A DNA stretch of 64,000 nt from Escherichia phage vB_EcoM_ESCO10: sequence record OM386655.1. The stretch is one strand, 5' to 3'. Positions within the stretch are counted from its first letter, which is position 1. Every line of letters starts with the position of its first letter. Position numbers and translations under genes: made by a program. The notes under the pieces were generated by a model. It did no database searches. It was given only the letters and a program-made list of their open reading frames with translations, and was not told where the DNA came from. Below are positions 23,127 through 23,334 of the stretch, piece by piece.

Positions 23127-23154
23127 TATTGTTTCCTGTGATAATTAACTTATC

Positions 23155-23162
23155 TATTTATA
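23155..23162 (-). promoter_or_regulatory. late promoter (TATAAATA) for IP-like gene 22665..23126
   Basis: Exact minus-strand TATAAATA 29 nt upstream of ATG, directly after a hairpin terminator. Confidence 0.6.
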
Positions 23163-23164
23163 CC

Positions 23165-23191
23165 AAAAAGGCCCAACCTTTCGGAAGGGCC
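23165..23191 (-). terminator. rho-independent terminator immediately upstream of the IP late promoter
   Basis: Hairpin GGCCC..CC-GAAA-GG..GGGCC followed by a U5 run. Confidence 0.6.
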
Positions 23192-23334
23192 TTTAACCTA
23201 GGGTAACCTTGTCGGGGTTCCACCTGCTAGGCAAGTGTTCGGGGCGCCGTTTCAGCTGTGATATAAGGGGGCATTAACAAAACATAAAGATTTATTAATG
23301 CCAGTCCTTAAACAGGGAACTTCAGTCCGACGAC

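Follow-up and report, generated by a model that had tools for sequence, protein, structure and literature searches.

What occupies the 208 nucleotides that separate an ORF with a T5orf172 domain from a 153-amino acid ORF in Escherichia phage vB_EcoM_ESCO10, and does this gap encode an RNA of its own? The gap (positions 23127-23334) lies within a 64-kb window of the ESCO10 record OM386655.1, by which we mean the whole stretch of 64,000 nucleotides that was analyzed, and all coordinates given here refer to the minus strand of that window. A sequence-only reading had described a hairpin with an 8-bp stem, a GC-rich segment, and a terminator hairpin directly before a late promoter, and had guessed that the region might encode a small RNA comparable to the two that are known from phage T4. 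The hairpin is indeed found on the minus strand, where GGCATTAA (23302-23295) faces TTAATGCC (23277-23270) across 17 nt and the stem can be extended by one U-G and three A-U pairs, and the terminator and promoter box follow in the order described (Table 1). As a whole, the gap folds at -66.3 kcal/mol with a z score of -3.96 versus shuffles; for the opposite strand, the z score is -2.46. A perfect 8-bp hairpin also appears in 6.5% of dinucleotide shuffles of the region, making it mildly unusual alone. Because the hairpin is unremarkable by itself, the case for an RNA gene rests on conservation and covariation among relatives.

Comparison with related phages indicates that a segment of about 120 nt at this locus is almost certainly the ortholog of T4 rnaD, the gene for species 2 RNA, a small stable RNA of the T4 tRNA cluster that has been known since the 1970s. 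A blastn search with the 208 nt matched 738 phage records, all of them T-even relatives, with Escherichia, Shigella, Yersinia, Salmonella, and Citrobacter as hosts. The match falls under annotated rnaD or species II RNA in phages RB55 (KM607002), Aplg8 (KT184308), and RB3 (AJ884578), and in annotated T4-type records it covers rnaD together with the sequence 3' of rnaC. Among annotated copies, that of RB3 is closest, at 95% identity; identity to the annotated RB55 gene is 85% overall and 95% in the core. The ends of the gene were set by alignment to RB55 rnaD (1475-1592) and RB3 rnaD (858-978), and a covariance model gives a single match at 23358-23240, with 146.9 bits over the full model length. 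Synteny agrees with this assignment, since tRNA-Arg(UCU) precedes rnaD on a shared strand both in T4 and here, where a mobile ORF lies between the two. What had been offered as a T4-like small RNA thus appears, on the evidence of blastn, synteny, and covariation, to be a direct ortholog of T4 rnaD.

The boundaries of this gene differ from those that the sequence-only reading had drawn. Homology begins upstream of the 208-nt gap at AGAAACCGGGTCGC, within the T5orf172 ORF, and the unit is not bounded by ORFs at 23127-23334; the RNA gene begins near 23360, 26 nt inside the ORF and 1 nt after a remnant ...ATACCA-A. At its 3' end, the gene reads GGCGC-CCC here and GGCGC-ACC(A) in other phages. The GC-rich segment is present as described, and it corresponds to the 3' core of rnaD plus a conserved trailer, an identity that had been missed.

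Searches outside the T-even phages were consistently negative. Rfam, at gathering and at permissive thresholds, gives no match in the region and recognizes only the window's two tRNAs, and T4-type rnaD and rnaC queries match no Rfam family either. Subthreshold matches to a Tetrahymena snoRNA and a Bacteroides sRNA (best E = 0.55-1.4) were dismissed as chance. We also rejected a tRNA or tmRNA identity, as ARAGORN and the Rfam tRNA model match 23909-24064 and nothing in 23127-23360. The exact core motif has 0 matches in 185,579 bacterial and archaeal genomes, blastn against 5,426 Escherichia coli genomes finds no rnaD homolog, and Serratia phage X20 and Klebsiella phage KpV477 give no match to the covariance model within their tRNA regions. 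In IMG/VR and metagenomes, our scans recovered close T-even relatives along with three matches attributed to chance, and nothing more distant; together with GenBank, these sources supplied 30 unique homologs. In the GenBank records of many or most relatives, the rnaD/rnaC region is unannotated or lies under a spurious 'hypothetical protein' CDS.

Table 1. Features of the rnaD locus in the 64-kb ESCO10 window, in the direction of the minus strand
Feature	Position	Strand	Basis or remarks
tRNA-Met	24064-23990	-	Upstream part of the rnaD transcription unit
tRNA-Arg(UCU)	23985-23909	-	Upstream part of the rnaD transcription unit
T5orf172/MUG113-domain ORF, 184 aa	23889-23335	-	Pfam and PHROG matches; homing-endonuclease-like
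rnaD (species 2 RNA) ortholog, ~120 nt	23360-23241	-	Alignment to annotated rnaD
H1	23353-23337	-	5-bp ACCGG/CCGGU stem, invariant 7-nt loop GUCGCUA
P2, 5' strand G(U)CGUCG	23334-23328	-	Predicted by RNAalifold and MFE
P3	AGUU 23321-23318 with AGCU 23257-23254	-	Encloses P4 and P5
P4	UAAGG 23310-23306 with CCUUA 23268-23264	-	G-C to G-U changes seen
P5, apical hairpin, type A (GGCATTAA...TTAATGCC)	23302-23270	-	Three double compensatory pairs
P2, 3' strand CGGCGC	23249-23244	-	Predicted by RNAalifold and MFE; 3' tail NCC(N) at 23243-23240
3' trailer	23240-23193	-	Near-invariant in 24 unique sequences
Trailer hairpin, 7 bp	CACUUGC 23237-23231 with GCAGGUG 23227-23221	-	
Trailer second stem	AACC 23219-23216 with GGUU 23208-23205	-	Followed by a small variable hairpin
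Intrinsic terminator	23192-23165	-	Sequence and consensus fold
T4-type late promoter box TATAAATA	23162-23155	-	Predicted to serve the downstream gene
153-aa ORF, start MKTYNEFL	23126-22665	-	phrog_2280; separate from rnaD

To understand whether the conserved sequence is conserved as a structure, we turned to the comparison across related phages that the sequence-only reading had proposed, and it favors a common fold. In an initial model, which had a local hairpin H2 in place of P2, 94.6% of cells are paired across the 20 sequences with a type-A apical hairpin, versus 33-45% with slid partners; double changes occur at six pairs, and the covariation score of that model was reached by none of 500 shuffles. 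RNAalifold, applied to the same 20 sequences, independently recovers H1, P3, P4, and P5 and adds P2, and when homologs are folded singly by MFE, 25 of 26 show the same architecture, including those with hairpin types B and C. H1 is part of the MFE fold in 25 of the 26 homologs, as well as in the window once the sequence is cut to its mature ends, and its closing pair is A-U in 13, G-C in 5, and G-U in 2 sequences. For the first pair of P3 (consensus [A/U]GUU with AGC[U/A]), 14 sequences have U-A, 4 have A-U, and 2 have U.U. A fold comprising H1, P3, P4, and P5 is therefore supported by covariation in these alignments. Every pair of P2 is invariant, and the sole variant there, a U to A in two sequences, falls on a predicted bulge; since P2 and the internal loops never vary, they lie beyond the reach of covariation and remain predictions. 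The folding strand is fixed by the same data, because one U-G pair never varies and G-U intermediates are common, and read from the opposite strand each of these would become an A.C mismatch.

Several alternative elements were considered for the parts of the RNA that do not vary. The hairpin H2 (AGUC/GACU) of the first model gave way to P2, which both RNAalifold and MFE folding prefer, and the only natural variant, on a bulge of P2, breaks H2; we keep H2 as a modeled alternative to the predicted P2. A pseudoknot between GUCGC of the H1 loop and the 3' GCG(C)AC can be drawn on paper, and all of its positions are invariant. The GACUGA/GAAA loop, considered as a K-turn, departs from the K-turn consensus. 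Neither reading was adopted.

Among the 26 unique sequences compared, the window has one private change, an A to C at 23243 just before the CC tail, which yields GGCGC-C-CC versus the otherwise invariant GGCGC-A-CC and makes GGCGCC a perfect palindrome. The C may be genuine or may have arisen through sequencing error. If the sequence is extended by one 3' base, the C tips the MFE prediction toward a different pairing, between the 3' end and the H1 region; with mature ends, the consensus fold lies within ~1.2 kcal/mol of the MFE. In the favored model, position 23243 is unpaired and lies in the single-stranded tail.

The sequence of rnaD is conserved in two blocks on either side of its apical hairpin. 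The 5' core, AGAAACCGGGUCGCUACCGGUAAGUCGUCGGACUGA[A/U]GUUCCCUG, and the 3' core, AUCACAGC[U/A]GAAACGGCGCACC, are both near-invariant among homologs. A 46-nt query over the 5' core matches at 91% identity or better across ~735 phage records, and at the other end, conservation stops exactly after ...GCGCACC, where the next base may be G, A, T, or C. These cores are 91-98% identical, whereas the adjacent tRNA-Arg genes of the same phages are just 56-86% identical. Between the cores, the hairpin takes one of three sequences, which are unrelated but alike in shape and close in length. Type A is found in this window, T4, RB3, and Mosigvirus (~428 records); type B in JS98-like phages and one Mosigvirus (32 records); and type C in T2, BW-1, and one phage with a Dhakavirus-like rnaD context (~148 records). 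By genus, type B is seen in Dhakavirus and Mosigvirus, and type C in Tequatrovirus as well as in that one phage. Because the types cross genus boundaries, the hairpin appears to have been exchanged by recombination. A further ~128 records have the 5' core but no match to the hairpin query of type A, B, or C. These records were sampled, and the sequences fetched include Shigella phage Sf25 with an internal deletion, one type B, four type C (among them BW-1, which was fetched via the type-C query), and one locus, L046, that ends short of rnaD. Additional hairpin types may exist beyond A, B, and C.

The Sf25 deletion removes ~85 nt from within rnaD and joins AAGAAACCGGGTCGC to ACAGCAGAAACGGCGCACC (L041, about 350-400). 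Sf25 is thus a natural rnaD-minus phage, in which rnaC and the trailer are intact, and rnaD is dispensable in at least this one natural phage.

A hint of a link between the apical hairpin and phage fitness comes from phage BW-1. The same rnaD SNP arose in all three BW-1 lines evolved on the semi-permissive E. coli ECOR34, and was given in that paper as 'position 41' with no note of its pairing (PMC12685909). We mapped the change to rnaD nt 73, A to G in the RNA sense (OR125554.1 position 164264; L040 433); the authors' count runs from the other end of the RNA. The SNP lies in the type-C P5 stem, where it converts a C.A mismatch to a C-G pair, a state shared with other type-C phages. It shifts the predicted folding energy from -25.9 to -31.0 kcal/mol and the predicted probability of the apical stem from 0.09 to 0.63. 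The SNP could represent standing variation. As modeled, its effect hints that, on some hosts, folding of the hairpin affects phage fitness.

We next consider the ORF that lies between tRNA-Arg and rnaD. This 555-bp ORF shares its last 26 nt with rnaD, such that its final codons (K K P G R Y R plus TAA) fall within the rnaD 5' leader and H1; the TAA stop at 23337-23335 is the UAA of CCGGUAAG and begins at the last base of the H1 stem. Its distribution is sporadic, with occurrences in 18 of 760 related records, and it is absent from the closest relative, vB_EcoM_005. Where present, the ORF follows tRNA-Arg and runs into the next stable-RNA gene. In this phage and VR7 that gene is rnaD; Serratia phage X20 and Klebsiella phage KpV477 have tRNA-Thr instead, with an overlap of 10 nt (L028, L029: 2048-2057). 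The tRNA-Arg of the window is only 56% identical to that of T4, and sequence comparison suggests that the ORF travels together with its own tRNA-Arg allele. We also observe that all three loci with the ORF beside rnaD (the window, VR7, and L019) share that divergent tRNA-Arg type, and that the end of the ORF reads ...GAAATACCAA at 23367-23361, resembling the last bases of a T4-type tRNA-Arg (GGGATACCA-A).

Since the tRNA-Arg/rnaD junction is a hotspot for mobile endonuclease genes, the cores might be conserved as DNA, serving as homing-endonuclease sites or recombination arms with no RNA role. No fewer than five different sequences are found joined to one and the same 5' boundary of rnaD, T5orf172-type ORFs lie directly after tRNA-Arg in distant genera, and SegB cuts tRNA genes in the T4-type cluster (PMC2330249), all of which would fit such a role. 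The pattern of substitutions points elsewhere, however: compensatory and G-U changes keep pairing on one strand only, which is an RNA-level signature, the hairpin shape survives complete replacement of its sequence, and the BW-1 SNP restores a base pair. We consider conservation at the DNA level to be extremely improbable.

The window also differs from T4 in what follows rnaD. The 139-nt T4 rnaC is absent through a precise deletion between ...CCGAA and CACTTGCC, and a search across the whole 64-kb window did not find it. A clean deletion of ~146 nt removes rnaC in this phage (23240-23244) and in JS98-like phages (QL01, L010; JS98, L013), and VR20-like phages have an ORF between rnaD and the trailer, at the usual place of rnaC. 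The rnaD gene is kept in this phage and in both the JS98-like and VR20-like phages, and is therefore retained more widely than rnaC.

The absence of rnaC from the window, the insertion of an endonuclease gene that overlaps the 5' end of rnaD by 26 nt, and the unique change at 23243, with its effect on the predicted MFE when one extra 3' base is present, could together be read as signs of decay, in which this copy of rnaD would no longer be functional and the locus would be on its way out. We regard decay as very unlikely. Apart from 23243, which is unpaired in the favored model, the core matches relatives that look functional at 95-98% identity, no helix is broken, and the covariance model scores the gene over its full length. 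Moreover, the ORF uses the rnaD sequence unchanged, and the same arrangement is found in VR7 and L019.

Downstream of rnaD, the trailer is near-invariant whether it is preceded by rnaC, rnaD, or an ORF. The terminator, AGGCCC-UU-CC-GAAA-GG-UU-GGGCCU at 23192-23169 with a T-run at 23169-23165 (U5), features a GAAA tetraloop and a 2x2 U.U internal loop, and it is because of this internal loop that a simple terminator scan missed it. The terminator is conserved in relatives, and its stem contains one covarying pair (C-G in 10 sequences, G-C in 4). The promoter box TATAAATA occurs in 16 copies in the window versus 8.0 expected; the copy considered here, a predicted late promoter, lies 29 nt before the ATG at 23126, and most relatives have the box in the corresponding place. 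Conservation, which the sequence-only reading expected to stop at the terminator and promoter if no RNA gene lay here, reaches well past both.

Similar modules are seen nearby. A second GAAA-loop terminator, the T4-type copy, follows the 153-aa ORF at 22657-22634, and another TATAAATA at 25519-25512 precedes an ORF (25477-25241) that contains MKTYQEF, both on the minus strand. Genes with an internal-protein-like N terminus appear to sit as cassettes between terminator and late-promoter modules, and the module recurs nearby in relatives.

On the basis of T4 and the anatomy of the locus, we propose a route by which rnaD is probably produced. The gene would be transcribed last among the stable RNAs of a unit that comprises tRNA-Met, tRNA-Arg, the T5orf172 ORF, rnaD, and the trailer, and that ends at the terminator. 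An endonucleolytic cut in the A/U-rich leader, just 5' of H1 (...CCAA/ACAAG, at ~23360), would free the RNA, and its 3' end would be formed by trimming back to P2 and a short NCC(A) tail. This tail is like the 3' end of a tRNA and might be completed by a CCA-adding enzyme; the genomic tail reads CCG here, not CCA, and the likeness to tRNA is one of resemblance only. The compact fold, with a 5' hairpin and an irregular rod of P2-P3-P4-P5 closed beside the 3' tail, would stabilize the product. If 5' processing proceeds as in T4, with the end one base past the tRNA-type ...CCA-A, the ORF mRNA would be left without a stop codon, and rnaD excision would thus remove the last seven codons and the stop of the T5orf172 mRNA, limiting its expression. 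Such a cut-off of the stop codon of an endonuclease gene by processing has been proposed for segB (PMC2330249). In T4, RNAC and RNAD are late RNAs by RNA-seq in a 2022 transcriptome study, in which a Northern blot is described for an RNAC probe only (PMC9697503).

This arrangement raises the question of whether rnaD might act in cis only, as a 3' cap and processing platform of the tRNA operon transcript that would shield the precursor against 3' exonucleases and guide the tRNAs through maturation in order, with the released RNA a stable by-product. In every case, the gene closes the tRNA cluster on its 3' side, directly following either the last tRNA or an inserted ORF, with the trailer and terminator next in line, the natural loss of rnaD in Sf25 is compatible with such a role, and T4 deletions covering the rnaD region are viable, which likewise counts in favor of it. 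We nevertheless consider a purely cis-acting role unlikely. The near-invariance of predicted loop and internal-loop nucleotides over ~735 genomes exceeds what a protective hairpin would need, and the trailer and terminator, which are retained independently of rnaD, could suffice for that role. The RNA also accumulates late in T4 infection (PMC9697503), and the BW-1 SNP was selected on just a single host (PMC12685909).

No role is assigned to RNAC or RNAD in the review and transcriptome literature (PMC3014915, PMC9697503). We tentatively put forward the possibility that rnaD is a trans-acting structured RNA whose effect on fitness depends on the host strain. In this view, a conserved partner would dock onto the invariant core of the RNA, made up of GUCGCUA in the loop of H1 and of two internal loops, GACUGA/GAAA and CCCUG/AUCAC, and P5 would have to be a stable stem, with a sequence that is free or even driven to diverge. 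More speculatively, and with rather doubtful standing, rnaD could be a host-range or counter-defense RNA whose core engages a host or phage factor. The apical hairpin would then serve as a specificity or evasion module, a suggestion that derives from the exchange of at least three unrelated hairpin types across genera and from the convergent repair in BW-1. If true, the counter-defense reading would give the T4 species 2 RNA a function and would point to a new class of modular phage RNA, cut from tRNA operons, in the host arms race.

Taken as a whole, our best explanation of the locus appears highly probable to us, with the strength of its separate parts (identity, production, and role) as given above. 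As an annotation result, rnaD in this phage is an already known RNA gene and its identification is routine. What the comparison adds is a fold backed by covariation, invariant cores with an interchangeable hairpin between them, and the reading of an adaptive SNP as pair-restoring, all of which bear on the function of the T4 species 1 and species 2 RNAs, a question that is 50 years old.

Comparison with known systems places the locus among several familiar arrangements. Like segB and the endonuclease genes in the tRNA clusters of phage T5 (PMC2330249), the window has an endonuclease-type ORF inside a cluster of RNA genes, and processing of the neighboring RNA would be expected to cut off the 3' end and stop codon of its mRNA. 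Unlike segB, the ORF has a T5orf172/MUG113 domain rather than being of the Seg type, its stop lies inside rnaD rather than beside a tRNA, and its activity is putative.

The T4-type rnaD genes of RB55, Aplg8, and RB3 share with the window copy their strand, their place after tRNA-Arg, a length of ~118-121 nt, and the predicted fold. In contrast to them, the window copy is separated from tRNA-Arg by the T5orf172 ORF, runs directly into the trailer rather than into rnaC, and carries C where they have A ahead of the CC tail; in its apical hairpin, it follows the version of RB3 and not that of T4. The species 1 RNA gene, T4 rnaC, also encodes a small stable RNA of the same transcription unit and lies between rnaD and the trailer in T4-type phages. 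No homology links rnaC to rnaD. The rnaC gene features a T-arm like that of a tRNA (GGGTTCGAATCCCGG), gives only a weak subthreshold tRNA-Sec-like match in Rfam, and is absent from this window and from JS98-like phages.

A further comparison, no more than a lead, is provided by tRNA-like and non-tRNA RNAs with tRNA-type 3' ends that are substrates of RNase P or the CCA-adding enzyme, such as 4.5S RNA precursors and bacterial Y RNAs. Unlike these, rnaD is without a cloverleaf, a T-loop, or pairing between its 5' and 3' ends; like them, it combines a G+C-rich helix followed by an NCC(A) tail with a location in a tRNA operon and a rod-like body.
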